Positions 7,825 to 63,224 are shown, counted from the stretch's first letter. The stretch is 64,000 bases of DNA from Candidatus Uhrbacteria bacterium (GCA_016187515.1 JACPJN010000006.1:192856-256855), one strand, 5' to 3'. Numbers and translations are program-made. The notes: generated from the letters alone by a model not told the origin.

Positions 7825-8070
7825 AAGGAACGGAAAAATACTATCCCTATATTGCATCCAAAGAGCTTAATCTGCAGATTTTGCCAAAATAAAATACAGC
7901 CCCTACTCCCTTGCGGGAGACGCCACCATGAAGGCGACTAGTCAGGGCTGTATCAATTCCACTATCACCATACCATAAGATACAATATCTGTCAAGACAA
8001 CGGTGGGGATAAGTCATGCATAGCAACAATATGATAACGCAATAACTTAATAACCAAATAACTCATCAAT

Positions 8071-8946: not shown

Positions 8947-9049
8947 ATCATCTATGATATAGCGGTGTCGTGATATGCAATTTAAGAGGATGTATTTGAT
9001 TACCTGGATCCAGCGGGCTGCGATCCATAACTAATAATAACTCACCAAT

Positions 9050-13817: not shown

Positions 13818-13974
13818 CATAACACGAAATAGACACAGATCGTTAACGAATGAATCACAAATTAAAATAAAAAGAAAGGGAGTAACCTTCGGACAAAACC
13901 TTAGGCGTGCCCCTTCATCGTGATATCTAAACTATACCATAAGCCCTCCTGCTCTGTCAAGGGGCTCTAAACGC

Positions 13975-19253: not shown

Positions 19254-19364
19254 TCGTCCGGAATCAGGAAGTATGAATCAGAAAGTATGGGTTGAGTTGG
19301 TTGAAATGACGATCAAAGGCCCTAATTCGTAATTCATCATTCATAATTCGTTCAAACAAAAGCT

Positions 19365-22713: not shown

Positions 22714-22748
22714 TACTCATTTTAGGTGCGATCGCAAATAAATGAGTA
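22714..22748. repeat. 35-nt hairpin repeat, copy 1 (tactcattttaggtgcgatcgcaaataaatgagta)
   Basis: A perfect 9-bp stem tactcattt/aaatgagta with an internal gcgatcgc palindrome. Identical copies lie at 38495-38529 and 39188-39222. Confidence 0.6.
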
Positions 22749-25813: not shown

Positions 25814-28800
25814 TCATACCTTTCTCATTCCCACCCATATTTTATTGTTGTTTTCAAGGGGGATTTCGTATGACCAGGACATCTCTTGCGGCGCGTTTAC
25901 AAGTTTCACCGCGCGGGCCAGGACTGCTTTGCGCAGTTGTTTTTGATATTCTTTGACAACACCCCTCACCCCGCCCTCACCCGGCCTTTCGGCCACCCTC
26001 TCCCGCGGGGAGAGGGGAGGGTGAGGGTTCATGATTGCAATCAGTATGTCCACCTTGTCGGACGGCGTCAGTCCTGCGGCTTTGCGCGCGTCGTTGATCA
26101 GGCGCGTAAGTTCGCGAGCGAGGCCTTCTTTTTTAAGTTCCGGGGTGAGTTCGGTATTGAGTGAGACGGTGAGATTGCCGTCGGTTTTAGTGATCCAGCC
26201 GCCCCCTCCCCTCGCCCCTCCCACCAAGGGAGGGGAATTTCCAATCGTTTCCTCCCCCGCGACAGTCTCCCTCTCCCCCTGTGGGAGAGGGTTGGGGTGA
26301 GGGGTGGAGGATTTAGGAGGGGGGACAATCGTCACCTCCCTCACATTCACCTCCTCCGCAATTAATTGTAGCAAAACATCGCGATTCGCACTTTCTAATT
26401 TCCAATTTCCAATTTCCAATTTCCCCAATGGTTGTCTCACCTTCAACTTCGCTTCCGCCCGCGCCGCGTGCGCCAGCTCCACCACCTTACGCGCCGCGCT
26501 CATCTCTTCAAGCAGCGCCGTATCAATTTTTGCTTTCTTGAGTTTTGGCCAGTCGGATAAGTGAACGGATATTGGATGATTGGATGATTGGATGATTGGT
26601 GATTCATTGTCTTTTCGAATCTCTAATCTCGAATCTCTAATCTCCCGATACACATGCTCCGCCAAAAACGGCATAAATGGGGCAAGCACTTGCGACAGAG
26701 TATGTAGAACGTAGCGGGTAGTGAGTAAGGCGACGCGCTTCTCGCTTTTCTTTCCCTTAAAACGATCACGACTGCGGCGAAGATACCATTGGGAGAGATC
26801 AGCGATAAAATCCTGTATGGGCCGGCTGGCCTCGGATAATTTATATGCCTCCATATTCTCGGTCACCTCCTGAATCAGTTGATGCAACCGTGCGGCAATC
26901 CATTTGTCCAATATATGTTTAGAATTTGGAATTTTGAGTTTGGAGTTTGTTTGGGATTTGGGATTTGGAATTTGGAATTTTTCGTCTTGTGGTGCGTACA
27001 ATTTATAAAACTCCACCACATTCAAAAGCATGCTGACTACTTTATTATACATCTCGCGCACGCCTGCCTCCGAGAAATTTAAATTCTCCGCGTGCATGAC
27101 CGGAGAAGTCGCAAAGTAATAACGCAAGGCATCCGCGCCATACTTATTTATTACCGCCTCCGGTTCCGGATAATTTTTAAGGCGCTTGGCCATTTTTTTG
27201 CCATCTTCCGCCAGCACAATGCCATTGACAATCACGTTTTGAAACGCCGGCACGACTTTGCCAATCGGGATAGCTGGCGTTTTGCCGCGGGTAAGCGCCA
27301 CGGCTAGCACATGAAGCGTATAAAACCAGCCGCGGGTTTGATCCTGTCCTTCAGCAATAAACTCCGCTGGAAACGCCGCCTCAAACCGATCCTTATTTTC
27401 AAACGGATAGTGCATTTGCCCGTAGGGCATGCTTCCGGACTCAAACCAGCAATCTAATACTTCCGGAATGCGCTTCATTGTTCCTCCGCACTGCTTACAA
27501 GGAAAAGTTAATTCATCAACAATATGTTTATGCAAATCACCCACTGATTTCTCCACCAATTTTTCCAACTCTGCCACAGAACCGACAACGATAATGTTTT
27601 GACATTTGGAATTTGAATTTTGTTTGTCATTTGTAATTTGTAATTTGTAATTTCCGGTTTGGCATCGCCAAACCGGCAGCGGCGTTCCCCAAAAACGATT
27701 GCGTGAAATCGCCCAGTCGCGCGCGCCTTCAAGCCATTTGCCAAAACGCCCTTCCTTAATATACTCCGGCACCCAATTCGTCTTTTTATTGGCTGAAAGC
27801 AAAAGCTTTTTTAATTCGGTCACGCGCACAAACCAGCTGGAGGTTGCGTAATTCAAAAGCGGGGTATCACAGCGCCAGCAATGCGGATAGCTATGCGTGA
27901 TTGGCTCTGCGCGAAACAATTTGCCGCTTCCGCGCAGCCATTCTACAATTTTTTCATCTGTGGCGCCGGGATTGTCTTTGGGCTTAACTTCCCAACCCTT
28001 GAAATCCGCGACCTCCTCCTTAAAGCGGCCGTCCATACCCACATGCTGAACCAGCGGAATTTTTTGCTTTTGTCCAACCTGATAATCATTCTCGCCAAAA
28101 GCCGGCGCAATATGCACAACACCCGTACCATCTTCGGTCGTAACAAAATCTCCGGCCACCACCCGAAACGCGCGCTCGGTATCTTTATAGTATGGAAATA
28201 ATGCTTCGTATTTTAGCCCAACCAAGTCCTTGCCTTTAAGCTCTTTTACCACCTCGTATCCTCCACCAAGCATGGAAAGTCGCGCTTTGGCCAGAATGTA
28301 GTATTCGTCACCATTCGTAACCCCCCTATCCCCCCTTACCCTAAGGGGGGAATTTTCTGCGGCTCCCTCCCTTAAAGTAAGGGAGGGCTGGGGTGGGTTA
28401 TGAATCTTCACCACCACATAATCAACATCCGGATTTACCGCCAGAAGGACATTCCCCGGCAATGTCCATGGGGTTGTCGTCCAAGCCAGAAGATAAGTTG
28501 GTAAGTTGTAAGTTGTAAGTTGTAACTTACTACTTACTTGCTTACTACTTACAACTCGGAATTTCACGGTCACCGCCTTCTCTTTTACATCTTTATAGCC
28601 CATCGTTACTTCAAAATTTGAAAGCGGAGTTCCACAACGCGGACAAATATGCATGGCCTTGTATCCTTCATAAATCAACCCTTGTTTCCAAAGTTCCTTA
28701 AACACCCACCACACGCTTTCCATGTACGAAAGATCCATGGTTTTGTAGTCGCGCTCCATATCCACCCAGCGTCCAATGCGGCGGATTGTCTTTTTCCACT

Positions 28801-30019: not shown

Positions 30020-30500
30020 GCGCCCGGATGACCGTGAAGTCAGAGCCGGGACGCGGAAAGTAACGCGAGGGATTGTTGCGGCATTGGTACTCCCCCTAGA
30101 GAGAATTGGCACCGCATTTCCTTTGTACATGCCAAACGACGAATCGGTCATTGACCCCCGGTTTTGACCCGGACAGTTGTGCGTCTATTCTGCACCACCT
30201 TATACAGCGCCGCAAGGCAGGGTACCGACCTATGGCCTCTTCATCCGATAGTGGTGTCGCGGACGGAAAGCGATCGCGCACGCATCCCTCGACTCTGGGT
30301 CCAAACAACAGCATCTCGCGGCAATTGCTACTGCTACAATACGCTGAAGCGTGACTGATACAATACGCGGGGAGACACTCCTCCTGCCAAAGTTTTCGAA
30401 GCAGCTTTTTCCAGAGTCTTTCCCAAAGGCGCATGGGTCCTCCTGTTTATGGTAGCCCCTTGTTCATTATTTTGCCAAGTTTTCGACAATTTGTCAAGGG
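30020..30500. ncRNA. candidate structured non-coding RNA (identity unresolved)
   Basis: About 480 nt with no credible ORF. It is GC-rich with many long-range complementary segments (for example gagggat/atccctc, and gtgcag-aatag-acgcac as a hairpin). In minus-strand reading there are patches resembling bacterial RNase P RNA (CCATAGG, TAAGGTG..GTGCAGAATAGACGCAC, CCCGGCTCTGAC). Confidence 0.2.
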
Positions 30501-30561
30501 CGGGGTACAATGGAAGCATTCGTGAGTTATTCGTCTCTTATTTGTGAGTTATTTGTGTTTT

Positions 30562-31308
30562 ATGAAAGAAATAATCCCCACCATTCTTGTGCAAGATCGT
30601 TTGGAGTTTGAACGGCGGCTTGGTATAATGGAGGGGAAGATTCCGGTTGCGCAGATGGATATTATGGATGGGAAGTTCGTTAAAAACACCACCTTTTCCG
30701 ACCCGAAAATCGCCGCGCGCTACCAAGTGGACTATGAGTTGGATTTGATGGTGGCCGATCCTGGGCCGGTGCTGGAGAAGTGGCACGACACCCTCCCCCC
30801 CGCCCGTGGCGAGGCTCGCCTTTGGCGGCAGCCCCCTCCCATTAAGGGAGGGGGAAAAGTGGTACGAGCGTTTGTGCATGCCGAGATAAAAAAACCTCTG
30901 GCGTCGCTTCTTGAAAAAATAAAATCGTACGGCTGGGAAGCCGGGATTGCGCTCAATCCGGATACAGGGTGGGAAGTGGTGGAGCCGTATATCGCTCGTA
31001 ACCCCTCCCGACCTCCCCTTACCCTAAGGGGAGGAGAAACTGTGGACTCCATACTTTTTATGACGGTCTATCCCGGGCAAAACGGCGCGGCGTTTCAGCC
31101 GAAAGTAATTCCGAAGATTACGCAGTTTCATAAAGCGTATCCAAAGATAATAATTGAGGTGGACGGCGGAGTAAACGAGAAGACCTTACCCCGCCTACTC
31201 ACGGCCGGCGTTACTCGTTTTGCGGTTGGCAGTGCGATATGGTCCGCGCCGGATCCCGTTGGAGAATATAAAAAACTTTTTCAATTAACAAATAACTCAC
31301 TAATATAA
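30562..31308 (+). CDS. rpe: ribulose-phosphate 3-epimerase
   Basis: It has DIMDGKFV and the end-motif VDGGVN. There are two palindromic insertions at 30790-30858 and 30999-31038. The leader carries 11-nt repeats. Confidence 0.75.
   Translation: MKEIIPTILVQDRLEFERRLGIMEGKIPVAQMDIMDGKFVKNTTFSDPKIAARYQVDYELDLMVADPGPVLEKWHDTLPPARGEARLWRQPPPIKGGGKVVRAFVHAEIKKPLASLLEKIKSYGWEAGIALNPDTGWEVVEPYIARNPSRPPLTLRGGETVDSILFMTVYPGQNGAAFQPKVIPKITQFHKAYPKIIIEVDGGVNEKTLPRLLTAGVTRFAVGSAIWSAPDPVGEYKKLFQLTNNSLI
30790..30858. repeat. Palindromic element in-frame in rpe (second copy at 30999-31038)
   Basis: ccctcccccccgcccgtggcgaggctcgcctttggcggcagccccctcccattaagggagggggaa. Confidence 0.55.
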
Positions 31309-31377
31309 ACGAATGACCCACCTATAGGAATTCGTGAGCCATACGTCTTCTTATTCGTGAACCATTCGTCAATTCAA

Positions 31378-31470
31378 TATGAAGAAATTATTTTGGATCC
31401 TCATTGGTCTCGTGATTGCGCTGACGGTGGTAATTCTGGTGCTTGCCTTGGTCGCGGCGCTTCGCGCTTA
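31378..31470 (+). CDS. putative 30-aa single-TM peptide
   Basis: MKKLFWILIGLVIALTVVILVLALVAALRA*. It is flanked on both sides by attcgtgag repeat arrays. Confidence 0.3.
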
Positions 31471-31568
31471 AACACAAATAGCTCACGAATAGAAACGAAT
31501 AGCTCACGGATATATTCGTGCGCCATTCGTAATTTGTGAGTTATTTGTAACCAATTCGTGAGCTATTC

Positions 31569-32432
31569 GTGCATATGCATATTCATGACGATAAGATCAA
31601 GGAGTTAGAAGAGAAAGCTCTCCAGGTGCGCGAGCTTATCATTGATATGCTTGTCGCGGCGGGCTCCGGCCATTCGGCCGGCCCCTTGGACATGGCCGAC
31701 ATTTTTGTCGCGCTATATTTTCATATTCTGCACCATGATCCGAAAAACCCGGACTGGCCCGAACGCGACCGGCTGATTTTATCCTGCGGCCATATTTGTC
31801 CGGTGCGTTATGCAACTATGGCGCTCGCGGGATATTTTCCAATTGAAGAATTAAAGACGCTGCGCAAGTTCGGCACGCGCCTGCAAGGGCACCCGGAACG
31901 CCTGCGTCTTCCCGGATCCGAGACCACTTCCGGCCCGCTTGGCGCCGGACTGGCACAATCCTGCGGCCTGGCCTACGCCGCGCGTATGGACGGCAAGACC
32001 TGGCGTACTTATTGCATTACCTCGGACGGCGAGCATGAAGCCGGATTGCATTGGGAAGCCGTGCTGTGGGCCGGAAAATATAAACTTTCTAATTTGACGT
32101 GCATTGTAGACCGCAATACCATTCAAATTGACGGCGGGACCGAGGAGATCATGCCGCTTGAACCCCTGCGCGCCAAATACGAGGCCTTTAATTGGCATGT
32201 GCTGGAAGTCGGCGGGCACAATCTGGAACAATTTGTTGACGCGGTGGAAGAAGCCAAATCCATTTTGGAAAAACCCACGGTCATCATCGCGCACACCATC
32301 CCCGGCCGCGGCGTTTCGTTCATGGAGAAAAAATTCGAATGGCACGGGATCCCGCCGAATAAAGAACAAGCGGCCCAGGCATTGCGTGAACTACGCACTC
32401 TTGGAGGTAAGATTACTTCGGAGCACGAGTGA
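31569..32432 (+). CDS. tkt: transketolase, N-terminal (TPP-binding) subunit
   Basis: GSGHSAGPLDMADIFVALYF...GHPE....TTSGPLGAGL matches Transketolase_N. This is the split form. Confidence 0.8.
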   Translation: MHMHIHDDKIKELEEKALQVRELIIDMLVAAGSGHSAGPLDMADIFVALYFHILHHDPKNPDWPERDRLILSCGHICPVRYATMALAGYFPIEELKTLRKFGTRLQGHPERLRLPGSETTSGPLGAGLAQSCGLAYAARMDGKTWRTYCITSDGEHEAGLHWEAVLWAGKYKLSNLTCIVDRNTIQIDGGTEEIMPLEPLRAKYEAFNWHVLEVGGHNLEQFVDAVEEAKSILEKPTVIIAHTIPGRGVSFMEKKFEWHGIPPNKEQAAQALRELRTLGGKITSEHE

Positions 32433-32482
32433 TATTTGACTAATGGCTCACAAATGCGTAACAAATAGCTCACGAATAACAA

Positions 32483-32911
32483 ATGAAAGACGAATTACTC
32501 ACAAATAAAGTGCTGCATGCGGAATTATCGTACAAATTCGTTTCACTGGCAATTGAAGTCAGTAAAAAGTATGGCTATCTTCATAAAGAACAAGTGTATC
32601 AAAAAGTTATGGAGGAGTTGCTCGCTAAAAATGGTATTCCTTTCATCGCCCAGCCAAGGATTAATGTGCATTCGCTCGATACGGGTAAATCTTTAGCGGT
32701 ATATGTTCCGGACATATTAGTAGATCAAAAGATCATCGTAGAACTCAAGGCATTGCCATTTGTTCCTAAACCGCAGATTAACAAGTTAGAACAATATCTA
32801 AAAACATCCCGCTATGAGGTCGCTTATATGGTAAACTTCGGCACGCCAAAAGCACAGATTGTCAGAAGAATTTATACCAATGATCGAAAACCATTTGTGA
32901 GCCATTTGTAA
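32483..32911 (+). CDS. GxxExxY-family protein (PD-(D/E)xK-like)
   Basis: ELSYKFVSLAIEV...YGYLHKEQVYQKVMEEL...IIVELKAL...VNFG matches the GxxExxY family. It is inserted between the two tkt halves. Confidence 0.7.
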   Translation: MKDELLTNKVLHAELSYKFVSLAIEVSKKYGYLHKEQVYQKVMEELLAKNGIPFIAQPRINVHSLDTGKSLAVYVPDILVDQKIIVELKALPFVPKPQINKLEQYLKTSRYEVAYMVNFGTPKAQIVRRIYTNDRKPFVSHL

Positions 32912-32934
32912 TTATTCGTGAGTAATTTGTCACT

Positions 32935-33927
32935 ATGCCGGTAAGCCAAACTGCTAAATTAGTGCCCACACTGTTTGACACCCAGTCCCTCAAACAAGTA
33001 CCCACCAGAGATGGCTACGGTCTTGGCATAGTTGAAGCCGGAAAGGAAAACCCCAACGTCGTCGTGCTTTGCGCGGATCTTACCGAATCCACGCGGAATT
33101 TGGAATTTAAAAAACAATTTCCCGACCGGTTTATCCAGTGCGGGGTGCATGAGCAATTTCTGGCTGCCGCCGGAGCCGGGCTTGCGCTGGCCGGAAAAAT
33201 TCCGTTTATCTCCTCGTATGCGATGTTTTGCCCGGGCCGCGCCTGGGAACAAATCCGCACCAACATTTGTCTTAATGAGGTAAATGTCAAAATCGCCGGG
33301 GCCCACGCCGGGGTCTCCGTCGGCCCGGATGGCGCAACGCATCAAGCCATTGAGGATATCGCGATCATGCGCCCGATTCCCAATATGCAGATTATCGTGC
33401 CCTGTGATATGATTGAGACGCGCAAAGCCACACTCGCTGCCGCGAAACTCCCCGGCCCTTTCTACGTGCGCTTCGCGCGCGAAAAGTCGCCGGTTTTTAC
33501 AACCGAAGAAACGCCTTTTGAATTCGGGAAGGCCACGGTGTTTCACGATGGGAGCGACGTGGCAATTGTGGCCTGTGGACCGCTTGTCCATGAAGCAATG
33601 CTTGCCGCGCGAGAACTGGAAAAAAGGAAAATCTCCGCGCGGGTCATCAACTCGCACACTGTAAAACCCCTTGATGAAGACACAATACTAGCCGTGGCAG
33701 AAGAATGCGGCGCAATCGTTACAGTAGAAGAGCACCAAATCACCGGCGGACTGGGCGGGGCGATTGCAGAGTTTCTGGTCAAACACGCGCCAGTGCCGAT
33801 CGAAATGATCGGTATCCAAAACTTATTCGGCCAAAGTGGAAACCCTCGGGAACTTTTAGAACATTACGAACTCACCGCCCCGCATATCGTAGAATCCTGC
33901 CTAAGAGTACTGGCAAGGAAAAAATAA
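32935..33927 (+). CDS. tkt: transketolase, C-terminal (pyrimidine-binding) subunit
   Basis: ...CGVHEQFLAAAGAGLALAGKIPFISSYAMF...GPDGATHQAIEDIA matches Transket_pyr plus the C-terminal domain. Confidence 0.8.
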   Translation: MPVSQTAKLVPTLFDTQSLKQVPTRDGYGLGIVEAGKENPNVVVLCADLTESTRNLEFKKQFPDRFIQCGVHEQFLAAAGAGLALAGKIPFISSYAMFCPGRAWEQIRTNICLNEVNVKIAGAHAGVSVGPDGATHQAIEDIAIMRPIPNMQIIVPCDMIETRKATLAAAKLPGPFYVRFAREKSPVFTTEETPFEFGKATVFHDGSDVAIVACGPLVHEAMLAARELEKRKISARVINSHTVKPLDEDTILAVAEECGAIVTVEEHQITGGLGGAIAEFLVKHAPVPIEMIGIQNLFGQSGNPRELLEHYELTAPHIVESCLRVLARKK

Positions 33928-34061
33928 CCCTCTCTTTAACATACCTTATGGCCTTCCACCCCAAACCCTCCCGTCCAACGGCTTTTCTTTTTCCGCCCTT
34001 GCGCGCGCCGGAGGAAAAAGGCGATTTTCGCCAAGAAATTTCCTGGCGCATCTTTCGCATC

Positions 34062-34661
34062 ATGGCCGAATTTATTGACGGTTTTCAGTTTTTGGCCGAC
34101 CTTAAAAAAGAAGTAAGTTTTTTCGGCTCCGCGCGGTTCAAGCCGTCCAACAAGCACTACCGCGAAGCGGAGAAACTCGCGCGGATGCTCGGCAAAGCCG
34201 GATTTACCGTAATTACCGGCGGCGGTCCGGGAGTGATGGAGGCGGCGAACAAGGGGGCAATTGAAACCGGCGCGGAGTCGGTCGGACTGAATATTCAGCT
34301 CCCGAAAGAACAGCGGGTTAACCGGTATGTAAAGCATGGCATTGGTTTCCATTATTTTTTTACCAGAAAAGTTATGCTCTCGGCTTCGGCGCAGGCCTAC
34401 GTATTCTTTCCCGGCGGATTTGGAACGCTTGATGAAATGTTTGAACTCATTACGCTTATTGAAACGGAAAAAGCCGAGCGCATCCCTATTGTACTTATCG
34501 GCAAGGATTACTGGAGCGGACTGCTTAGCTGGATTGAAGAACAAGTATATAAAAAACACCACGCGATAGAAAGGGGAGACATGAAAATTTACACGCTGGT
34601 GGACTCGGTGGAGGAGGCGTATGAGATTGTGGTGAAGTCAAAAGAACGAGCGTATTTCTAG
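34062..34661 (+). CDS. LOG-family protein (cytokinin riboside 5'-monophosphate phosphoribohydrolase-like)
   Basis: SFFGSAR....VITGGGPGVMEAANKGA...PGGFGTLDEMFE is the TIGR00730 signature. The ORF-track start at 33705 overlaps tktC by 220 nt and is rejected. An alternative start is 33948. Confidence 0.7.
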   Translation: MAEFIDGFQFLADLKKEVSFFGSARFKPSNKHYREAEKLARMLGKAGFTVITGGGPGVMEAANKGAIETGAESVGLNIQLPKEQRVNRYVKHGIGFHYFFTRKVMLSASAQAYVFFPGGFGTLDEMFELITLIETEKAERIPIVLIGKDYWSGLLSWIEEQVYKKHHAIERGDMKIYTLVDSVEEAYEIVVKSKERAYF

Positions 34662-34677
34662 TGATGAATCATGAATT

Positions 34678-35067
34678 ATGAATCAAGAATCAAGGGGATT
34701 GAAATCGTTTACTGATCTCAATGCATGGAAAGAAGGACATGCACTCGTTCTACAAATTTACAAAACAACAAAGGCCTGGCCGAAAGAGGAAGTGTTTGGA
34801 CTAATAAGCCAGATACGTCGCTGTGCAGTATCAATTACTTCCAACATTGCCGAGGGTTTTAGCAGACAATCGTATAAAGAAAAAGTACAGTTTTACGCAA
34901 TCGCACTCGGATCAGTCACCGAACTTCAAAACCAACTCCTGATCGCGAAAGATGTGGGGTACATCGCTATTGACAATTTCAACACAATTGCACAACAGTC
35001 AATCAAGGTACACAAAATTATCAATGGTCTGGTCAAAAGCTCAAAATCCATGATTCATAATTCGTGA
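34678..35067 (+). CDS. four-helix-bundle protein of the '23S rRNA intervening-sequence protein' family (TIGR02436)
   Basis: ...AWKEGHALVLQIYKTTKAWPKEEVFGLISQIRRCAVSITSNIAEGFSRQS.KE...F. It is bracketed by tgattcat/atgaatca repeats at 34663-34700 and 35043-35083. Confidence 0.75.
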   Translation: MNQESRGLKSFTDLNAWKEGHALVLQIYKTTKAWPKEEVFGLISQIRRCAVSITSNIAEGFSRQSYKEKVQFYAIALGSVTELQNQLLIAKDVGYIAIDNFNTIAQQSIKVHKIINGLVKSSKSMIHNS

Positions 35068-35083
35068 TTCTTGATTCATCAAT

Positions 35084-36061
35084 ATGCTCAATCTCCTCTC
35101 CATTGGCGACATTAAACTGGATACTTTTGTAGTAGTACCGGAAACCTCCAGTTTTTGTAAACTGCAAATGCCGGAGTATTTGCTTTGCTTTAATTATGGC
35201 GAGAAAATTCCGGTCGGCGCGGTGGAATCGCAAATCGCCGGAAGCGCGCCAAACGTCGCGGTCGGACTTTCGCGATTAGGGTTTAAGACCAGTGTATTTA
35301 GCTTTATGGGACAAGACGGCATTCATAAGCTCGCGCTCGATGTGCTTAAAAAGGAAAAAGTGGACGCGCGTCTGATTAAGACCTTAACGGGCGCGAAAAG
35401 CAGTTTTTCCGCGGTGTTAAACTATAAAGGAGAAAAGACCATTTTGGCCTCGCACATTTCATACCCTTACGCCCTTCCGAAGCGCTTGCCGCAAATGGAA
35501 TGGATGTACGTGTGTGAAATGGGACATAATTACAAACGGCTTTACCGTGAAGCGGCGCGCTGCGCAAAAAATAGGCCGCTAAAAATCGGGTTTAACCCGG
35601 GCGCTATTCAAATTATGGAACGCGATAAAGCGCTTTATGAGCTGATCGCGCAAACCGAGGTGTTGTTTGTTAATGTTGGCGAAGCGCACGCCATCTTAAA
35701 ACAAGAACGCCAACCCCTGCCCATTGAGCGCGTCGCGTCAGAATTGTATAAAATGGGGCCAAAAATTATCGTCATTACCGACGGCCGCAAAGGCGCCTAC
35801 GCCTTTGACGGGAACCAGCTGGATTTCTGCCCAGTATTTCCTTCCAAGCGCGTGGAGGCAACCGGCGCCGGAGATGCCTTTGCAACCGGCTATCTTGGGG
35901 CGCTGATGCGCAAGATTGGCCATCGGGAAGCGCTGCGCTGGGGCGCGGCCAACGGGGCGTCGGTGGTCGGTTTTGTCGGGCCGCAACCCGGACTTTTGAC
36001 CCTTCCGCAGATGCGCGCGACTTTGCGCAAGCACGCGAATATAAAAGCCGTGAAAAGGTAA
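35084..36061 (+). CDS. PfkB-family carbohydrate kinase
   Basis: Ribokinase-like fold with the C-terminal GAGDAFATGYL motif. Confidence 0.7.
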   Translation: MLNLLSIGDIKLDTFVVVPETSSFCKLQMPEYLLCFNYGEKIPVGAVESQIAGSAPNVAVGLSRLGFKTSVFSFMGQDGIHKLALDVLKKEKVDARLIKTLTGAKSSFSAVLNYKGEKTILASHISYPYALPKRLPQMEWMYVCEMGHNYKRLYREAARCAKNRPLKIGFNPGAIQIMERDKALYELIAQTEVLFVNVGEAHAILKQERQPLPIERVASELYKMGPKIIVITDGRKGAYAFDGNQLDFCPVFPSKRVEATGAGDAFATGYLGALMRKIGHREALRWGAANGASVVGFVGPQPGLLTLPQMRATLRKHANIKAVKR

Positions 36062-36104
36062 AAAAATTGACACCGCCCATGCATATATAGTATGCTACGG
36101 GTAT

Positions 36105-36374
36105 ATGGCCCACACCAATCTTATCTCGCAAATCAGCACCGCACGCTTAAGCCGTGATCTTGAAGAGATTGATCGGCTGCTGCATCGTATTAAAAAACAT
36201 ATTGACACTTTGCCGCCTCACACTGCAGACGCTAACCTATCCAGCGTATGGAAACGCACTGCCGGTATTATTTCCCAGGAACGTGCCGAGGAAATTATTG
36301 CGTCAATCGCCCAATCGCGTAAGAAGTGGAGTGATAATTCCGCAAGAATAGAACAGATGTGGCATTCCGAATAA
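36105..36374 (+). CDS. hypothetical small protein
   Basis: An 89-aa ORF. There is a TTGACA...TAGTAT-like promoter upstream at about 36066-36095. Confidence 0.35.
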   Translation: MAHTNLISQISTARLSRDLEEIDRLLHRIKKHIDTLPPHTADANLSSVWKRTAGIISQERAEEIIASIAQSRKKWSDNSARIEQMWHSE

Positions 36375-36465
36375 TCATAAGCTATGAGCTTTCATTACCA
36401 AAAACCTCCGTGATTTCAAAGATATTCCTGATCTCGTGGTCCGGGATCATTTTTAGCGTCCTCTC

Positions 36466-37356
36466 ATGGTAATGTCCCTGCACTCCACACTTATCCGTGC
36501 CGCGAAAGAAAAATGGGCCGTACCGCATTTTAATGTCGGCGACTTTGAGCAGTTTCGCGGGGTGTGTGAAGCGGCGGCAAAGTTGCGCGCGCCGGTCATG
36601 ATCGGCACTTCCGAAGGCGAACGCGATTTTTTAGGTCTGCCCCAGTCGGTCGCGCTGGTAAAGGCGTTCCGCGATCAGCTGCATCTGCCTATTTTTCTTA
36701 ATGCTGATCATACCCGAAGTGTACGGGCCGCCAAAGCGGCCATTGACGCCGGGTACGACAGTATCCATATTGACCTTTCGCGAGAGCCGTGGAACACGAA
36801 CCTTAAGGGTACGCGAGAAATAGTGCGCTACGCGCGTGAAAAATGTAAAAGGAAAAATGTAAAATGTAAAATTAGTGTTGAAGGCGAATTGGGCTACATT
36901 GTAACTGAATCATCAAAAGTGTATAAAAAGAAAATTTTGGTTGACCCTTCCACCTTTACAAAGCCGGAGGAGGCAAAAAAATTTGTGCGGCTTACCGGAG
37001 TTGATCGTTTTGCGCCGGCGGTTGGAAATTTGCACGGCATCGCCGCAAACAAACCAAAACTTGACTTTGTACTTATAAAAAAACTACGCGGTATAATTCC
37101 GATGAATGTCGCGCTGGTGCTTCACGGCGGATCCGGAAATAGTCCGGCGGCGTTTAAAAAAGCGATCAAGCTCGGTATCAACAATATCCACATTTCCACC
37201 GAACTGCGCATCGCGTATGTGAAATCCGAACACGCCTCGCTCCATCGCCAAAAAAACGAACTCGCCCCGTACAAACTCGCCGCGCCGGTAGTTGAGGCCG
37301 TGCGCAAAAAAGCCGAATATTTTATTAGATTGTTCGGGGCCTATAATAAAGCATAG
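36466..37356 (+). CDS. fba: class II fructose/tagatose-bisphosphate aldolase
   Basis: ...PHFNVGDFEQ....LNADHT....HGGSG. An in-frame repeat aaaatgtaaaa sits at 36838-36870. Confidence 0.75.
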   Translation: MVMSLHSTLIRAAKEKWAVPHFNVGDFEQFRGVCEAAAKLRAPVMIGTSEGERDFLGLPQSVALVKAFRDQLHLPIFLNADHTRSVRAAKAAIDAGYDSIHIDLSREPWNTNLKGTREIVRYAREKCKRKNVKCKISVEGELGYIVTESSKVYKKKILVDPSTFTKPEEAKKFVRLTGVDRFAPAVGNLHGIAANKPKLDFVLIKKLRGIIPMNVALVLHGGSGNSPAAFKKAIKLGINNIHISTELRIAYVKSEHASLHRQKNELAPYKLAAPVVEAVRKKAEYFIRLFGAYNKA

Positions 37357-37357
37357 T

Positions 37358-38443
37358 ATGTTTGATGTCATTACAATAGGAAGCGCGACCCGCGACGTGT
37401 TTTTGTTTGTCCAAGCGCTTCATCCGCATCGGGAATCAGACGCGGTAAGTAAAATTGAGGCCTGTCTTCCCTTCGGCGCTAAAATTGATATTGAACGCCT
37501 TGCTTTTGATACCGGCGGAGGAGCAACCAACAGCGCCGCGACGTTTGCGCGGCTGGGAAAATTTGAAGTTGCGGCGCTCACGCGCATAGGACAAGACAGC
37601 CGCGGACAAAGTATTTTAAAAGTGCTTCACGCCGACAACATTGATACTTCGTTGGTGCAAGTCACCAATAAAGATCATACCGCTTATTCTTCAATCCTTT
37701 CTCCAACCCACGCGCATAGTGAGCGCACGATTTTGGTCTATCGCGGGGCATCCTCATGCATTGAGAGCAGTAAAATTCCGTGGACTAAACTGCGTGCCAA
37801 ATGGTTTTATATATCTTCGCTTGGCGGCGATCTGTTACTTTTAAAGAAACTTATCGACCATGCTCGAAGGATAAAAGCTCAAGTCGCCTGGAATCCCGGC
37901 GGTCAAGAACTCTCCAAACTCACCCCTCCCCTTAGGTTAAGGGGAGGTTGGGAGGGGTTACGACAATCAATTGACTTCCTCATCCTCAACCGTGAAGAAG
38001 CCGCAAAACTCACTGGAAAAAAATTCGATGACACCAAAGGATTGCTTCGCGCGCTGGCGCGTACTACACACATCGCAGTCATGACCGACGGCCCTAAAGG
38101 CGCGTATGCCATCGTAGGTTCACAGTCATCAGTTCACAGTTCACAGTATCGTAATTCAAAAACTAATTACCCAATTACCAAATTACCTAATCACCAAACG
38201 GCCTACTTCGTCCCCTCTGTCGGCCACAAACCGGAAAATCTCACCGGCGCCGGTGACGCTTTCGGTTCCGGCTTTGTAACCGGCTGGATCAAAAGCCGCG
38301 GCGATATCAAATACGCCTTACGCTTGGCTTCGTTCAATGCTGACAGTGTAGTCCAACACGTCGGCGCGAAAAACGGAATTCTTGAGAAAATTCCTTCCGC
38401 AAAGCAGCTGCAAAAGTTGCCCGTAAAGACACTGCACATTTAG
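37358..38443 (+). CDS. PfkB-family sugar kinase (second copy)
   Basis: I place the start at MFDVITIGSATRDV. The C-terminus has a GAGDAF motif. There is a palindromic insertion at 37921-37962 and tandem repeats at 38120-38200. Confidence 0.65.
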   Translation: MFDVITIGSATRDVFLFVQALHPHRESDAVSKIEACLPFGAKIDIERLAFDTGGGATNSAATFARLGKFEVAALTRIGQDSRGQSILKVLHADNIDTSLVQVTNKDHTAYSSILSPTHAHSERTILVYRGASSCIESSKIPWTKLRAKWFYISSLGGDLLLLKKLIDHARRIKAQVAWNPGGQELSKLTPPLRLRGGWEGLRQSIDFLILNREEAAKLTGKKFDDTKGLLRALARTTHIAVMTDGPKGAYAIVGSQSSVHSSQYRNSKTNYPITKLPNHQTAYFVPSVGHKPENLTGAGDAFGSGFVTGWIKSRGDIKYALRLASFNADSVVQHVGAKNGILEKIPSAKQLQKLPVKTLHI

Positions 38444-38494
38444 CACCCCATTTCAAATATCCCATCCAGAAGACAACCTGGAAAGATTATGCTA

Positions 38495-38529
38495 TACTCA
38501 TTTTAGGTGCGATCGCAAATAAATGAGTA
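38495..38529. repeat. 35-nt hairpin repeat, copy 2
   Basis: Identical to 22714-22748. It overlaps the 5' end and leader of the PaaX-like gene. Confidence 0.6.
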
Positions 38530-39130
38530 TGAGAAAGCGCGTACGCGAGTGAGTATGAAATCAAAATTTAGACAATTTCAAATCGTCTTGCTGCAAATCT
38601 ACGCCGGATATCGCGAGCTTGATCATGCGCTTGCCTCATACAATCCGCGCAGCCACACACCTGGCTGGGATGCCACCGGCTATGCAGAGGACGCGCGCAA
38701 ATATGCAAAGCGGGATATAAAGCGACTCCATCGCCATATTGATTATCTCAAACGAGTCGGCTATGTAGAGCGCGTCCAAGAAGGTGAGGAGCAACTCTTG
38801 AAATTAACGGCCAAAGGCAAATACGAACTTCTTCGTTTGCGCTTTGTTGAACACCTGATGCAACAAAAGAAAGAGTTATGGGATCGCAAATGGTGGATCG
38901 TGATTTTTGATATTCCGGAACAAATGAAAAAGTACCGCAATTTTTTCCGCCTCCTTCTCAAAAAGAATGGTTTTAAAATGGTTCAGCGCTCGGTATGGAT
39001 CACGCCCTACAATCCGCGACCTTACATTAATGATCTTTTAGTATACCTTCGCCTTTCTAAATACTTCGAAATCATTGAAGCCGACTGCGATCGTTGTAGC
39101 CCAGCGCTTTTTAAAAAATTCAAACCGTAA
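38507..39130 (+). CDS. PaaX-like transcriptional regulator: N-terminal winged HTH plus a PaaX_C-type C-terminal domain
   Basis: The wHTH region reads IDYLKRVGYVERVQEGEEQLLKLTAKG. The C-terminal part WDRKWWIVIFDIPEQMKKYRNFFRLLLKKNGFKMVQRSVWITP follows the PaaX C-domain pattern (W.G.W.L...IPE...R..L...L...GF..L...VW). The true start may be MKSKF at 38557. Confidence 0.5.
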   Translation: MRSQINEYEKARTRVSMKSKFRQFQIVLLQIYAGYRELDHALASYNPRSHTPGWDATGYAEDARKYAKRDIKRLHRHIDYLKRVGYVERVQEGEEQLLKLTAKGKYELLRLRFVEHLMQQKKELWDRKWWIVIFDIPEQMKKYRNFFRLLLKKNGFKMVQRSVWITPYNPRPYINDLLVYLRLSKYFEIIEADCDRCSPALFKKFKP

Positions 39131-39187
39131 ACAATATCTGCATAAGGACACCGCTTATACCCCTGCTAAAAGAAGCGAAAATCTCTG

Positions 39188-39222
39188 TACTCATTTTAGG
39201 TGCGATCGCAAATAAATGAGTA
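39188..39222. repeat. 35-nt hairpin repeat, copy 3
   Basis: Identical to the other two copies. It lies 58 nt after the PaaX-like stop. Confidence 0.6.
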
Positions 39223-39287
39223 TGCAATGAACAATGGTGAAAGATAATTTAGGGTAGTGAACTACGGACATTAAGAAGATTCCTCAC

Positions 39288-39321
39288 AAAAAAAGAAGCC
39301 CCGCGACGGATGCCGCGAGGC
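39288..39321 (-). terminator. rho-independent terminator of the GC-rich minus-strand ORF
   Basis: The minus strand reads gcctcgcggcatccgtcgcggggc followed by ttcttttttt. Confidence 0.45.
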
Positions 39322-39422
39322 CGGGATGCGCGTCCTTCGACGTGGCAGGAGCCACAGAAGTAAAGGGCTTATCCGCCATTATGGCAGGCGGATCATTTGG
39401 AAGGTGCTGTGGAACTCTTGGG

Positions 39423-39935
39423 CTACTCGCGCTTGAGCGGATGATGCATGATGGCCGGATCCAGTTCCAGGATGCGTCGCCCTACGTCCGCTTCATCCAG
39501 CTCGCCTCGAACGAGCGCGGCCTGTACATCCGGACGGATCTCGGCAACGGTTTCGGCAATTTCCGCCATGGTCGGTTCCGACTCTTCACCGGTGAGGATT
39601 CCTTCGCCGTTTCTCGTCGAAATGTTGTACTGCCCTTCGAGATACAGCGTGAACGAGATGTGGACGCCATCGATCGCAAGGATGCACAGTTCGAACTCCC
39701 ACACGGTGCCCAAGTTGTCCTCGGAGCTGAGGCCGTTGATCACGCCCACGATCTCGCGCTCGTTGCTGTCCTCGTCGATCGCCGAGAAAACGACGGGGTG
39801 GCGGACGAAACGGTTAGGATCGTCGAGTGGACGTGATCTGTATTTCAGGCAACATTCCGTTACCGTATCACGCCGGTAGGTGAGACTGAGTTCAAGGTCA
39901 CGACGCGACGGACCACGAGTGATTTGCAGTGCCAT
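39423..39935 (-). CDS. hypothetical acidic protein on a GC-rich (~58%) insert
   Basis: A 170-aa ORF preceded by a strong Shine-Dalgarno (gtaaGGAGGtgccgtATG) and followed by its own terminator. Its composition is distinct from its neighbours. Confidence 0.55.
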   Translation of the reverse strand: MALQITRGPSRRDLELSLTYRRDTVTECCLKYRSRPLDDPNRFVRHPVVFSAIDEDSNEREIVGVINGLSSEDNLGTVWEFELCILAIDGVHISFTLYLEGQYNISTRNGEGILTGEESEPTMAEIAETVAEIRPDVQAALVRGELDEADVGRRILELDPAIMHHPLKRE

Positions 39936-40063
39936 ACGGCACCTCCTTACAGAACGCTCCCTGAGTTAGTGCAGGAAGCAAACACCCTGAGCACGGCCTG
40001 AAAGCCGCGCCGACCTGACCATACGGCCAGGAATTCTGTGTGTATAGTAGCATACCTTTTCCA

Positions 40064-40092
40064 TTGTGTCAAGAGGCGGAGCGTGGTAGAAT
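40064..40092 (+). promoter_or_regulatory. sigma70-like promoter: TTGTGT, 17 nt, TAGAAT
   Basis: It is followed by atttgtgag repeats in the leader before the ATG at 40137. Confidence 0.35.
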
Positions 40093-40136
40093 ATTTGTGA
40101 GTAATTTGTCTTTAATTCGTGAGCTATTTGTGCAAT

Positions 40137-42922: not shown

Positions 42923-44326
42923 TCAAAGCAATTTTTTCTGCGCGGCTTTTTCTTGCTCATCAAAAATATTTACCACCCCGTACTCGCCGTCATAACCGGG
43001 CGGATCGATTTTAACTTTTCCATCGCGCACTCTTTTTATTGCTTCCGCCAGGCGCGGCGAGGCAATAGCCGCGATCTCTTGCGGCAGTAGATTCAAAAGT
43101 AAATTCAGCTCTGTCCCCGCTTTCGCGACTAAATCCCAATACACTTTCTTCACGCTTTTCGCGCTTCTTCCTTTTACTCCTTCGGCTTCGGCAATAATTT
43201 TATCCAGTTCAATAAGCGGCCAAAATTGCGGGTGCGCGAGCGGAACACGGCCGGCTGGCTCATTGGCCAACTCCTCCACGCGCGAAAGCACGCCGACGGT
43301 TACGAGTTTTTTGCATTTCGGACAAATGCCGCCTAACTTCTTGGTTTCTTTAGGATGCAAGCACGCTTTACACGCGCGATGGCCGTCATAATGATAACGG
43401 CCTTCGTCGGGAATGAACTCCAGAGTGCCGGACATCCGCAATCCGCCCCCTCCCCTAACCCCTCCCACCGAGGGAGGGGGATCCTTTTTTACTCCCTCTC
43501 CCTTTATGGGAGAGGGCTGGGGTGAGGGTGGTTGCGTCAACTTCGCAGGTGCAGCATTGCGTATCGCCTCCATGATGGCATCGTACGACAGCGCACTCTC
43601 GCTTCCCTCAAACACGGTTGCCTCTCTTCCCAGGTTTGGCAATGAGTGAGCATCGGCAAAAGAGACCAGCGCCACGCGGTCAAGTTCGCGCACGCGCCAG
43701 CACATTGGCGGATCGGCGGACAGCCCGGTTTCAATGGCAAAAATATGCGGAGTCAATTCTTCAAAACACTCTTTAATGGAATCAAACCCGGAATTGGATC
43801 CGAAGATCGCAAACCAAGGAGTAAAAGCATGCGCCGGGATCATCACATTGCGCGGGTCAATCCCTAAAATAATTTTCAACAGCTCTTTTGAGCTCATGCC
43901 GATGATGGCGCGCCCATCTGATCCTAGTTTGCACCCGCGCGTGAGTAGCGCGGCATTTATTTCCCCCGCCACCTTTATCGAAGGCGCGTAAATACAATGA
44001 TGCACCCTTCTCACTTTGCGTGCACCTTGAGAGTAAATACACGCCAGCTCCGTGCCCAGCATGAAAAGCGTGGGCTTTTTAGGCAGAGGAATTGGCGGGG
44101 GCGAGGTTGGCGCGCCTCCATCCCGCAACACATACAAGCTCTCTCGGCCGCTCGGAACTAACTTTTCCTTGATCTCCTCAAACCATTTTGTATGCGTAAA
44201 GTCGCCGGCAGAAACAATATCCACGCCTTTAACCCGGCACCAGGCGTCGATATTTTCAAGGGTAAGCGCCGGTGAACACGCGCGGGCGTATTTTGAATGC
44301 GTGTGGAGATCGGCAATGAATCGCAT
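42923..44326 (-). CDS. PHP-domain nuclease, Endonuclease Q-like, with a C-terminal Zn-ribbon
   Basis: N-terminal MRFIADLHTHSKYARA (PHP His motif). C-terminal CKACLHPKETKKLGGICPKCKK. There is a large palindromic insertion at 43444-43533. Confidence 0.45.
   Translation of the reverse strand: MRFIADLHTHSKYARACSPALTLENIDAWCRVKGVDIVSAGDFTHTKWFEEIKEKLVPSGRESLYVLRDGGAPTSPPPIPLPKKPTLFMLGTELACIYSQGARKVRRVHHCIYAPSIKVAGEINAALLTRGCKLGSDGRAIIGMSSKELLKIILGIDPRNVMIPAHAFTPWFAIFGSNSGFDSIKECFEELTPHIFAIETGLSADPPMCWRVRELDRVALVSFADAHSLPNLGREATVFEGSESALSYDAIMEAIRNAAPAKLTQPPSPQPSPIKGEGVKKDPPPSVGGVRGGGGLRMSGTLEFIPDEGRYHYDGHRACKACLHPKETKKLGGICPKCKKLVTVGVLSRVEELANEPAGRVPLAHPQFWPLIELDKIIAEAEGVKGRSAKSVKKVYWDLVAKAGTELNLLLNLLPQEIAAIASPRLAEAIKRVRDGKVKIDPPGYDGEYGVVNIFDEQEKAAQKKLL
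43444..43533. repeat. Palindromic element in-frame in the EndoQ-like gene
   Basis: The sequence ccgccccctcccctaacccctcccaccgagggaggggg...ccctctccctttatgggagagggctggggtgagggtgg encodes PSPQPSPIKGEGVKKDPPPSVGGVRGGGG on the minus strand. Confidence 0.6.
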
Positions 44327-46013: not shown

Positions 46014-46059
46014 ACCTGTGCTTAATTTCTCAATGCTAATGACTTAATTATCAAATTAC

Positions 46060-47211: not shown

Positions 47212-47275
47212 AATTGGTAGTCCTCTCAATGTTCGTGCTTTTTCGTGTTCAAGTTCGTGTTCAAGGTTCGTGGCC

Positions 47276-53486: not shown

Positions 53487-53655
53487 AGCGATTGGAAATT
53501 GGATGATTCGAAGATTGGGAGATTAGCAATTAGAGCCGTAATTAACAAATTATCCAATTATCTAATCTTCCGCCATAATTGTCAAGAAATTCCCTGCACA
53601 ATCTGTGGATAAGTCAAAAACCGTACAAAATAGGGGTTTATCTAGTATTTTTATG

Positions 53656-61330: not shown

Positions 61331-61423
61331 TCGCGTACTTCGGCGTACGCTCTGTGCACGAATCAACGAATGTTCCTACGAATCCAACGAATTTGCTGTG
61401 TACAACAAAAAGCACCCCTGATA

Positions 61424-61543
61424 TGCCGGCATAGCCTACTTTCCCGGGACCGGATTGGGTCCGAGTATCATCGGCCTTGGATGCTTTCACTTCCGTGTTC
61501 GGAATGGGAACGGGTGGGTCACACCGAAATTAAACACCGGCAA
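61424..61543 (-). rRNA. rrf: 5S ribosomal RNA
   Basis: The reverse complement reads TTGCCGGTG...CCGTTCCCATTCCGAACACGGAAGTGAAAGC...GGAAAGTAGGCTATGCCGGCA. Helix I pairs its ends. Confidence 0.75.
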
Positions 61544-61799
61544 ATCTGGGGTGCTTTTTAGTATTGTTGTAAGAGTAATCACATCGCTCGCTCCGCTCGC
61601 TCTGTGTACGAATTACAAATCTTGTACGAATATTACGAATGTTGTCAATTCAAATTCGTAGTATTCGCAACGCCATTCGTTGATTCGTACACAGGAAGCG
61701 CCGGAGGCGCTGAATCCAAATTAGTGCTTCAGTGCTTTTGGATCGATTAGTACCGCTCGGCTCAAACCGTTACCGGTCTTACACCTGCGGCCTATCGCC

Positions 61800-61920
61800 A
61801 GCGCTCCGCGCTGCAAATCCCAAATTACAATTTCCAAATCCCAAACAAATTTTAAATCCCAATTTCTAAATTCCAATTTTGTGATTTGGAATTTATGATT
61901 TGGGTATTGTTTGTAATTTG
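61800..61920 (-). repeat. AT-rich simple-repeat expansion segment inside the 3'-terminal 23S rRNA region (H98 variable region)
   Basis: tttggaat/aatttggg-type repeats are inserted between two conserved blocks: one ending ...ccaataaccaagcacc and one starting ggccgcaggtgtaagaccgg. Confidence 0.5.
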
Positions 61921-62005
61921 GTGCTTGGTTATTGGAATTTCCAGTGCGAAGCACTGGTTTTACCTGGTCATCTCCCAGGGATCCATAAGACCTAATCTTG
62001 AGGAC

Positions 62006-62044
<39 letters not shown>

Positions 62045-62169
62045 AACGCTGCTACCGAGCAATGCCCTTGGTAGAACAACTCGTACACAGGAGGTTCGTG
62101 CCTTTTGGTCCTCTCGTACTGAAAAGGCGCCCTCTCAAGTCTTTACGCCCGCGGCAGATAGGAGACCGA

Positions 62170-62922: not shown

Positions 62923-62933
62923 GCATGTATTCC

Positions 62934-63164
<231 letters not shown>

Positions 63165-63177
63165 TGGCGAACAGCCA

Positions 63178-63224
<47 letters not shown>

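Follow-up and report, generated by a model that had tools for sequence, protein, structure and literature searches.

Intervening sequences (IVSs) that interrupt 23S rRNA and carry an open reading frame (ORF) for an S23p, or "23S rRNA IVS," protein are found in Coxiella, Leptospira, and Salmonella. To our knowledge, the four-helix-bundle proteins of this kind and the proteins called GxxExxY belong to two very widespread, multi-copy bacterial families whose function is not known. In the Coxiella IVS, tandem GACAGAT heptamers are located upstream of the S23p ORF, the element has terminal inverted repeats, and it is excised by RNase III (PMC4990558). The 23S rRNA IVS is the closest described system to the elements that are the subject of this report, which are located in a 64-kb stretch of DNA from Candidatus Uhrbacteria (the window, to which all positions refer unless a related locus is named). 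Here, arrays of 11-nt units with the core ATTYGT, often extended to ATTYGTGAG, are found directly upstream of start codons in an operon of rpe, an ORF for a 30-aa transmembrane peptide, tktN, and tktC, as well as elsewhere. We propose, with the evidence for and against in approximate balance, that these arrays form the two arms of insertion cassettes, palindromic and IVS-like, in which the forward-oriented arm is a portable leader for translation independent of a Shine-Dalgarno (SD) sequence. For comparison, we used a set of approximately 20 related loci, labeled L###.

The repeats noted in the preliminary description of the window are real and non-random: the pattern ATTYGT-N5-ATTYGT, with at most one mismatch, matched 30 times, as compared with 1.71 ± 1.42 times in dinucleotide shuffles, and every one of the 13 exact copies of ATTYGTGAG lies within an array. 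The usual array consists of four units in which ATTYGTGAGNN alternates with ATTYGT(CTY/other)NN. In arrays A, C, E, and F (Table 1) the ATG starts 10–11 nt after the last core, which occupies positions from approximately -11 to -6 and is separated from the ATG by a spacer of 4–5 nt; array B differs, with 15 nt from its last core (31364) to the ATG at 31379. A common order of units, GAGTA / CTTTM / GAGCT, is found in array F and in the reverse complement of array D, and the leader of dnaJ at L011 resembles array A.

Copies in the opposite orientation (CTCACRAAT) are located just past stop codons, at 31286-31315, 31471-31512, 32438-32507, and 13835-13862, and therefore the gaps between rpe, the 30-aa ORF, tktN, and tktC each hold two arrays, the first in reverse and the second in forward orientation. 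The reverse units at the end of rpe include 18 nt that are complementary to array A at 94%. Array A itself is the entire 5' leader of rpe and is a solo arm, with no inverted partner nearby. The preliminary description did not recognize in the arrays the arms of cassettes with inverted repeats, nor their link to GxxExxY and IVS-protein genes, and several of its particulars needed amendment. It had rightly noted an array upstream of rpe but had placed it, at 30507-30550, some 11 nt away from its true position; the arrays flanking the 30-aa peptide are likewise present, with the forward ones now corrected to the coordinates of arrays B and C. The array assigned to the front of the GxxExxY gene exists, but in reverse-complement orientation and extending into the ORF. 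Repeats do precede the PfkB kinase gene and do occur at 19320-19364, but with a period of 7 nt rather than 11. Finally, a position between promoter and start codon had been ascribed to the arrays of many genes. A promoter-like site precedes only arrays A and F, and because B, C, D, and E are intercistronic the statement holds for two genes.

Two of the cassettes contain a gene. One, between tktN and tktC, carries the GxxExxY gene, whose product scored 76.4 bits against TIGR04256 (cut-off, 35) and E 5.5e-22 against PF13366 and displays the PD...(D/E)XK motif VPDILVDQKIIVELK in its translation; no sequence relative of the protein was found in PDB. The other, which has heptamer arms and carries a gene for a 23S rRNA IVS protein (IVP), sits between LOG and pfkB. 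Neither is located in a helix of 23S or 16S rRNA, and the rRNA operon contains only the related array stems around 5S. The flanks of such genes, in the window and at other loci, were significantly complementary to each other for five of seven GxxExxY genes and three of four IVP genes, with z scores of 8.8 for the GxxExxY cassette and 9.1 for the IVP cassette of the window. The z scores were 9–19 for rpe, the 30-aa ORF, and tktN, each of which is bracketed by complementary arrays, and flank complementarity was not significant (z ~0) for 10 other control genes.

Predicted folding is in keeping with this anatomy. In both the minimum-free-energy (MFE) and the centroid structures of 32425-32950 and 34650-35100, the flanking arrays pair with each other and the GxxExxY and IVP ORFs are looped out. 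The gap between the 30-aa ORF and tktN is predicted to form a hairpin of -46.1 kcal/mol (z -6.15). For solo arrays, meanwhile, the prediction is a lack of structure (z -0.8 to +2.0; array A, z -0.76), and no significant hairpin was predicted for the array at 19325-19352 (z 0.42). The copies of ATTCGT/ACGAAT that the preliminary description had noticed on both sides of the 5S rRNA gene are indeed present: the 5' ACGAAT half of the array in the 23S–5S spacer is predicted, in MFE and centroid structures alike, to pair with the array downstream of the gene in a stem that encloses 5S rRNA (-157.4 kcal/mol, z -9.36). At the gathering thresholds of Rfam 15, the arrays of the window and of 15 related loci matched no known RNA family, and a search of 30400-33000 at an E-value threshold returned only sub-threshold matches to miRNA hairpins.

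Comparison of the operon with that of relatives revealed that the tktN|tktC cassette is patchily present at a single site. In closer relatives the same genes are 1–6 nt apart and are without arrays. Thus, tktN and tktC are separated by 1–2 nt at L099 and L100 (tktC 79–80% identical to that of the window), where ATTYGT arrays are absent, and by 4 nt at L097 (85% identical), which has neither the GxxExxY gene nor the rpe array; at L098 (83% identical) three unrelated ORFs occupy the gap. Yet the more distant L103, whose tktN and tktC are only 62% and 67% identical to those of the window, has the cassette at tktN|tktC with a GxxExxY gene 85% identical to that of the window, and L035 likewise has a cassette at this junction. 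A patchy distribution at one site, together with cargo that is more conserved than its flanks, is the pattern characteristic of homing-type elements. The junction between the 30-aa ORF and tktN holds hairpins of other, unrelated repeat units at L098 and L099, and inverted heptamer arrays of a different sequence (GTACGTAG) lie on both sides of the IVP gene of L097.

At the empty tktN|tktC junctions (L097 6690-6716, L099 9985-10003, and L100 9983-10003), tktN ends in ...CACGAATAA(n)ATG, which includes ACGAAT, the core of the reverse arm. The same CACGAATAA is found at L048 2018-2028, just past the tmRNA gene and upstream of the L048 cassette. To judge from these sequences it may be an insertion-site or seed sequence, which we mention only as a lead. 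At L024 (541-635), a close relative, an additional hairpin of CTCGAG/CTCGAC units is located between the rpe promoter and the ATTYGT array, which suggests that array hairpins of different kinds were inserted one after another into a single leader.

The forward arm is under strong sequence constraint. Array F is identical to its counterpart at L097 at 42 of 44 nt, as compared with 39% of fourfold sites in the downstream coding sequence, and the promoter and array F are kept together there. Array B is identical to that of L098 at 44 of 49 nt, again against 39% of fourfold sites. In another Parcubacteria lineage (L011 versus L065), the forward arm of the dnaJ leader matched at 43 of 44 nt, the reverse arm at ~81%, the loop at 50%, and fourfold sites at 52%. 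Identity of the forward arm so far above that of fourfold sites therefore indicates a constraint beyond what pairing alone would need.

We sampled the start-codon context of the lineage in 87 called starts from L001 and L097-L101 (window genes included). An SD-like tetramer was present in 7 of the 87. Position -1 was T in 77% of the starts (A and G, 3% each), position -3 was A in 47%, G was depleted from -14 to -1, and the endings CAAT-ATG and AACT-ATG recurred. Approximately half of Parcubacteria are without an anti-SD motif (PMC9297842). Thus, the preliminary description was correct that the arrays lack an SD sequence, but this is the norm of the lineage and not special to these genes. Its suggestion of an unconventional leader for translation initiation is plausible for the forward arm, which is predicted to be unstructured, ends in T before the ATG, and is conserved above neutral sites. 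We note that gene callers misplace starts in the arrays (rpe was called 27 nt downstream) and that ORF finders run into GTG codons within them.

Cassette-like arrays are not confined to the operon. When public genomes and metagenomes were scanned with a three-unit pattern, many matches proved to be perfect 11-mer microsatellites of unrelated organisms and were set aside. Two classes stood out among the rest. One consists of Parcubacteria-type arrays of four units that end at an ATG, at genes that include dnaJ and tsaD; the distance of 10–11 nt from last core to ATG recurs in several lineages of Parcubacteria, in 12 or more independent genes. The other consists of [CACGAAT]n-[ATTCGTG]n hairpins in Desulfatirhabdium, Prevotellaceae, and others. 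A tblastn search of the first pattern-derived loci with the GxxExxY and IVP proteins of the window returned no match; a local hidden Markov model built from 23 homologues detected GxxExxY at L035, L048, L060, and L103. GxxExxY genes retrieved through protein homology (a second copy at L103, and L104, L106, and L107) have CACRRAT-type tandem units upstream and, where the contig includes the 3' flank (L104, L106, and L107), ATYYGTG-type units downstream, in contexts as different as the gap between nusG and rplK (L106) and the region upstream of gatB (L107). The same CACRRAT / ATYYGTG flanking is seen at L048 (after tmRNA), L060, and L035, and an IVP gene of Flavobacteriales (L022) has inverted GAGGTGA heptamers on both sides.

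Table 1. Arrays, genes, and promoter-like sites of the window discussed in the text (arms are named according to the cassette proposal)
Feature	Coordinates	Strand	Remarks
Solo reverse-oriented units	13835..13862	-	Shortly past the stop (13817) of a + strand gene
7-nt ATTCGT/ATTCAT array	19325..19352	+	12 nt before ATG 19365 (TPR protein)
Promoter-like site TCGACA-17-TACAAT	30483..30511	+	Directly 5' of array A; 10/12 match in promoter scan
Array A	30518..30561	+	Units ATTCGTGAGTT ATTCGTCTCTT ATTTGTGAGTT ATTTGTGTTTT, then rpe ATG 30562
Reverse-oriented units ACAAATAACTCAC...ACGAAT	31286..31315	-	Overlap last rpe codons and stop (31306-08)
Array B	31330..31378	+	Forward units, then ATG of 30-aa transmembrane ORF (31379-31471)
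Reverse-oriented array	31471..31512	-	Directly 3' of 30-aa ORF stop; 5' arm of 30-aa ORF/tktN gap hairpin
Array C	31514..31574	+	6 forward units, then tktN ATG 31575; 3' arm of 30-aa ORF/tktN gap hairpin
Array D	32438..32507	-	Reverse units past tktN stop, extending into first GxxExxY codons; left cassette arm
GxxExxY gene (PF13366 / TIGR04256)	32483..32911	+	Cargo in cassette loop; intact PD...ELK
Array E	32892..32934	+	4 forward units, includes GxxExxY stop, ends at tktC ATG 32935; right cassette arm
Heptamer array, ATGAATC-type	34662..34695	+	Left arm around the IVP gene
IVP (four-helix-bundle) gene	34678..35067	+	PF05635 1.9e-37, TIGR02436 1.4e-35
Heptamer array, GATTCAT/ATTCGTG-type	35050..35083	+	Right arm, ends at pfkB ATG 35084
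Promoter-like site TTGTGT-17-(TG)GTAGAAT	40066..40092	+	Kept in L097; found by eye, below promoter-scan threshold
Array F	40093..40136	+	4 forward units, then 2-hydroxyacid dehydrogenase ATG 40137
ATTCGT-type array	61340..61395	-	Downstream of 5S rRNA (61424-61541)
ACGAAT/ATTCGT arrays, 23S–5S spacer	61596..61700	-	Local hairpin -48.6 kcal/mol, z -6.83

From these observations we infer that the cassettes are mobile (whether through homing or with repeated loss), that they are processed by RNase III, and that they furnish a leader. In a cassette, tandem CTCACRAAT-type units would make up the left arm and tandem ATTYGTGAG-type units the right arm, and the two would enclose a loop that is either short or occupied by a small gene, for a GxxExxY PD-(D/E)XK protein or, in a sister family built of 7-nt units, for an IVS protein. 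The cassettes would have been placed in the stop-to-start gaps of the compact rpe / 30-aa ORF / tktN / tktC operon, which measure 1–6 nt in relatives, and because these gaps are so tiny the left arm would directly follow the stop codon, and the ATG of the next gene would directly follow the right arm. The cassettes would be co-transcribed with the host genes, the arms would pair in RNA as long stems of the kind predicted around 5S rRNA, and RNase III would cut the stems, by analogy with rRNA IVSs. The forward arm, which is predicted to be unstructured when alone and is followed by the ATG after a final T, would then serve as the SD-independent leader of the displaced downstream gene, a role that it either acquired or always had. 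Such a role would explain why the forward arm is the most conserved part and why solo arms have been kept as whole leaders, as at rpe and the 2-hydroxyacid dehydrogenase gene.

More tentatively, and with more doubt than conviction, we suggest that GxxExxY genes and their CACRRAT/ATYYGTG arms represent an unrecognized class of homing-type cassettes, to which the IVP genes with heptamer arms would be parallel. These would be self-neutralizing insertions inside host transcripts (rRNA helices, spacers, and intercistronic junctions) in which pairing of the arms would allow excision at the RNA level and the right arm would re-start downstream translation, and the ORF-less hairpins and solo leaders of Parcubacteria, Desulfobacterota, and Bacteroidota would be their derivatives.

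A number of results weigh against insertion and mobility. The fourfold sites of the GxxExxY genes of the window and L103 are saturated (30% identical), and therefore the shared cassette could be old and its distribution due to repeated loss rather than homing; nor, given this saturation, is recent transfer of the cassette demonstrated. Neither a target-site duplication, in filled versus empty junctions, nor a sharp boundary of the element was found. Copies of the arrays are 60–90% alike and not near-identical, so recent transposition is not demonstrated either. Several samples yielded contigs (L001-L006) that match the window at 100% and exhibit no polymorphism in unit number. Not all homologues conform: one weak GxxExxY homologue (L113, Persicobacter) is without arrays, and one (L112) has direct rather than inverted repeats, a Fusobacteria plasmid copy being a partial fit; moreover, three of the supporting loci were retrieved by the array pattern itself and are a biased sample. 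As for RNA, folding in the mRNA gaps had no consistent advantage in the sense over the antisense strand, which leaves no strand-specific sign of selection for pairing there; for the same reason we dropped an argument for RNA-level selection that was based on G-U pairs. A stem of -46 kcal/mol that ends at an ATG would be predicted to block initiation unless it were processed or melted. Lastly, insertion of a hairpin alone is insufficient to account for the solo forward arms that follow promoters, since these are without an inverted partner. The arrays may also be a host-evolved translation element or processing signal, which would be compatible with the cassette model.

A host-evolved translation element is a competing explanation that we consider unlikely. 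The forward array would be a phased platform for ribosome loading or standby that evolved in place of the SD sequence, its last core occupying the usual SD position, with the inverted copies and the cargo being secondary; its units would mimic near-cognate U-AUU-YGU starts, or they could pair with an altered 16S tail. The fixed distance between core and ATG in Parcubacteria genes (dnaJ and tsaD among them), the far greater conservation of the forward arm than of the reverse arm, loop, and synonymous sites, its predicted lack of structure, and a lineage that has T at -1, dispenses with SD motifs, and belongs to a group in which the anti-SD is often absent are all as such a platform would have them. 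However, closer relatives translate the same genes without an array, most genes of the window do without one too, unrelated repeat units occupy the same junction in other relatives, and the motif is also found inverted after stops and in rRNA spacers; in the hairpin versions, moreover, the leader would be buried. An explanation that we rate somewhat lower still is that the arrays are host stems for RNA processing or stability (RNase III sites or pairing of 5' with 3' ends) that have no selfish history and that GxxExxY and IVP genes merely tolerate. A strong stem of the same motif is predicted to enclose 5S rRNA, strong hairpins are predicted in two places, the 23S–5S spacer and the 30-aa ORF/tktN gap, and several cistrons are bracketed by complementary arrays. 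Against this, sense folds are not favored over antisense in the mRNA gaps, partnerless solo arms are conserved, the arrays are patchy among close relatives, and arms are specifically tied to GxxExxY genes in unrelated genomic contexts.

Two further explanations are far less probable. The preliminary description had proposed an operator shared by pentose-phosphate and glycolytic genes. In the version considered here, a regulator of the OmpR/PhoB or ArcA type would bind head-to-tail to the phased 11-bp direct repeats (two 22-bp pairs) and, from +1 to +45, repress sugar-phosphate genes. The arrays do resemble OmpR/PhoB/ArcA-type operators in their 11-bp period and in their two to four direct repeats in 22-bp pairs; array F, in addition, begins right after the -10 element and is conserved jointly with its promoter at L097. 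But a promoter-like site is lacking upstream of four of the six arrays, most copies are not near promoters, both orientations occur, inverted copies are found at the 3' ends of genes, around 5S, and in the rRNA spacer, the arrays are absent at the orthologous genes of closer relatives, where the operon gaps are 1–6 nt, or are replaced there by hairpins of unrelated units, and a cognate regulator was not identified. A pentose-phosphate operator is not supported, given that in other lineages it is dnaJ and tsaD that such arrays precede. Promoter context, gene set, orientation, and orthology are thus the four counts on which an operator fails, and we regard it as improbable. Least probable of all is that the arrays are functionless by-products, microsatellites generated by slippage or template switching in the AT-rich spacers of a repair-poor genome. 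Many families of short-period units do occur in the gaps of this genome and its relatives, and unit number does vary between relatives. Conservation largely refutes a neutral origin, however: forward arms are 90–98% identical across lineages whose fourfold sites are saturated, and the architecture of four units in the same order recurs in unrelated genes and species. Array orientation, furthermore, is strictly biased with respect to start and stop codons, and no length polymorphism exists among samples. Also considered were iterons, boxA, DnaA boxes, Tn7-type end repeats, CRP and LacI half-sites, and the TTNTTT pause motif of NusG; these were set aside because they resemble the arrays only in part or because the genomic positions are unsuitable.

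Several other observations pertain to the operon and to the repeats of this genome. The 30-aa hydrophobic ORF (MKKLFWILIGLVIALTVVILVLALVAALRA) is kept between rpe and tktN at L024, L097, L098, L099, and L100; because none of the relatives examined lacks it, we take it to be a genuine small gene or leader peptide rather than a product of the repeats. Four tandem ATCACAA heptamers (CACAAAT, a reverse-type core) are located at 5691-5720 within an 826-aa ORF (4502-6982). A second repeat family consists of GC-rich palindromes, CCCCTCC...GGAGGGG, with 12 matches as compared with 0.23 expected, mostly inside long ORFs (30790-30860 and 31005-31045, both in rpe, and 528-606, 6747-6777, 12260-12292, 12928-12960, 14081-14111, 14837-14867, 26205-26235, and 43449-43479). 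Four relatives lack the two in-frame segments (~21 and ~14 aa) that these palindromes add to rpe; L024 shares the second segment, which is enlarged at L098. The palindromes resemble Rickettsia palindromic elements, which insert in frame.

On the minus strand, at 61790-61960 and 62150-63590, the 3' part of the 23S rRNA gene is interrupted, in one case by a low-complexity array hairpin of the AAATCCCAAAT type (sense -72.6 versus antisense -62.0 kcal/mol) and in the other by a larger insertion with an ORF for a LAGLIDADG_1 homing endonuclease (62296-62805; PF00961, E 6.5e-20). Contigs of the rRNA operon of this organism end in the 23S–5S spacer or extend <1 kb around the LAGLIDADG ORF. Other short-period, AT-rich arrays are located directly before starts at 8020-8070, 9020-9049, 46014-46059, 47230-47275, and 53487-53580 (the last three on the minus strand), with the units ATAACNNN, TAATTAAG, GTTCGTG/CACGAAC, and a CCAATYT hairpin; that the units differ indicates that repeat-built leaders are a general habit of this genome. 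The sequence ACTCATTTTAGGTGCGATCGC is present in three exact copies (22715-22735, 38496-38516, and 39189-39209; 0 expected), of which those at 22715 and 39189 are part of a hairpin, TACTCATTT...AAATGAGTA, and that at 38496 overlaps the start of a PaaX_M/Cas2-like gene (38507-39130). A match to the Rfam family DUF3800-IX RNA was found at 7889-7954 on the minus strand (51 bits; gathering threshold, 36.8).

The presence of both protein families in hairpins with tandem-repeat arms, in protein-coding operons as well as in rRNA, leads to a testable idea: GxxExxY and IVS-protein genes may be selfish cassettes whose arms the proteins recognize. The arrays would also provide conserved leaders of natural origin that work without an SD sequence, in a lineage of the candidate phyla radiation (CPR) that has abandoned SD initiation, and they bear on how bacteria without SD sequences select start codons.

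How, then, do the arrays compare with known systems? In the literature searched on GxxExxY, on PF05635/TIGR02436, on intergenic repeats of the CPR, and on palindromic repeats, no description of them was found, and only the Coxiella heptamers proved relevant. Like miniature inverted-repeat transposable elements (MITEs) and repetitive extragenic palindromic (REP) elements, they are short intergenic palindromes, presumably co-transcribed with flanking genes, in which ORF-less copies exist beside ORF-bearing ones. Unlike MITEs and REP elements, they have no conserved full-length consensus, no target-site duplication, and no transposase or REP-associated tyrosine transposase; their arms are internally repetitive and variable in unit number, and their position is locked to stop and start codons. 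With SD-independent leaders (the A/U-rich S1-dependent type, the Kozak-like type of Bacteroidota, and the omega leader of tobacco mosaic virus) they share a predicted lack of structure, low G+C content, short direct repeats, and, in a lineage without SD pairing, a location directly 5' of the start codon. They differ from such leaders in having a specific, conserved 11-nt unit and a four-unit architecture and in occurring inverted after stops as well, and their enhancer activity is putative.

In their patchiness at tktN|tktC, in cargo that is 85% identical between flanks that are 62–67% identical, and in cargo from a nuclease superfamily with PD...ELK intact, the cassettes are like homing-endonuclease genes and other selfish cassettes; unlike homing-endonuclease genes, they have no intron or intein context, and both cleavage and a defined recognition site would be hypothetical. 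It is the 23S rRNA IVS to which they are closest. The known IVSs reside in helix 25 or 45 of 23S rRNA, whereas the elements of the window are located between protein-coding cistrons and in 5' leaders; both of their arms consist wholly of 7- or 11-nt tandem units, one cassette carries GxxExxY instead of S23p, several have no ORF, and a host start codon marks the end of the right arm. In common with the IVSs, however, they have terminal inverted repeats that are predicted to form a long stem, a small ORF in the loop, and, at 34678-35067, a protein of the very same family (PF05635/TIGR02436). The tandem heptamers directly before that ORF, ATGAATC in the window, recall the GACAGAT heptamers of Coxiella. 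Finally, like the IVSs, the element would be transcribed within a host RNA, from which RNase III, as in the known cases (PMC4990558), would excise it.

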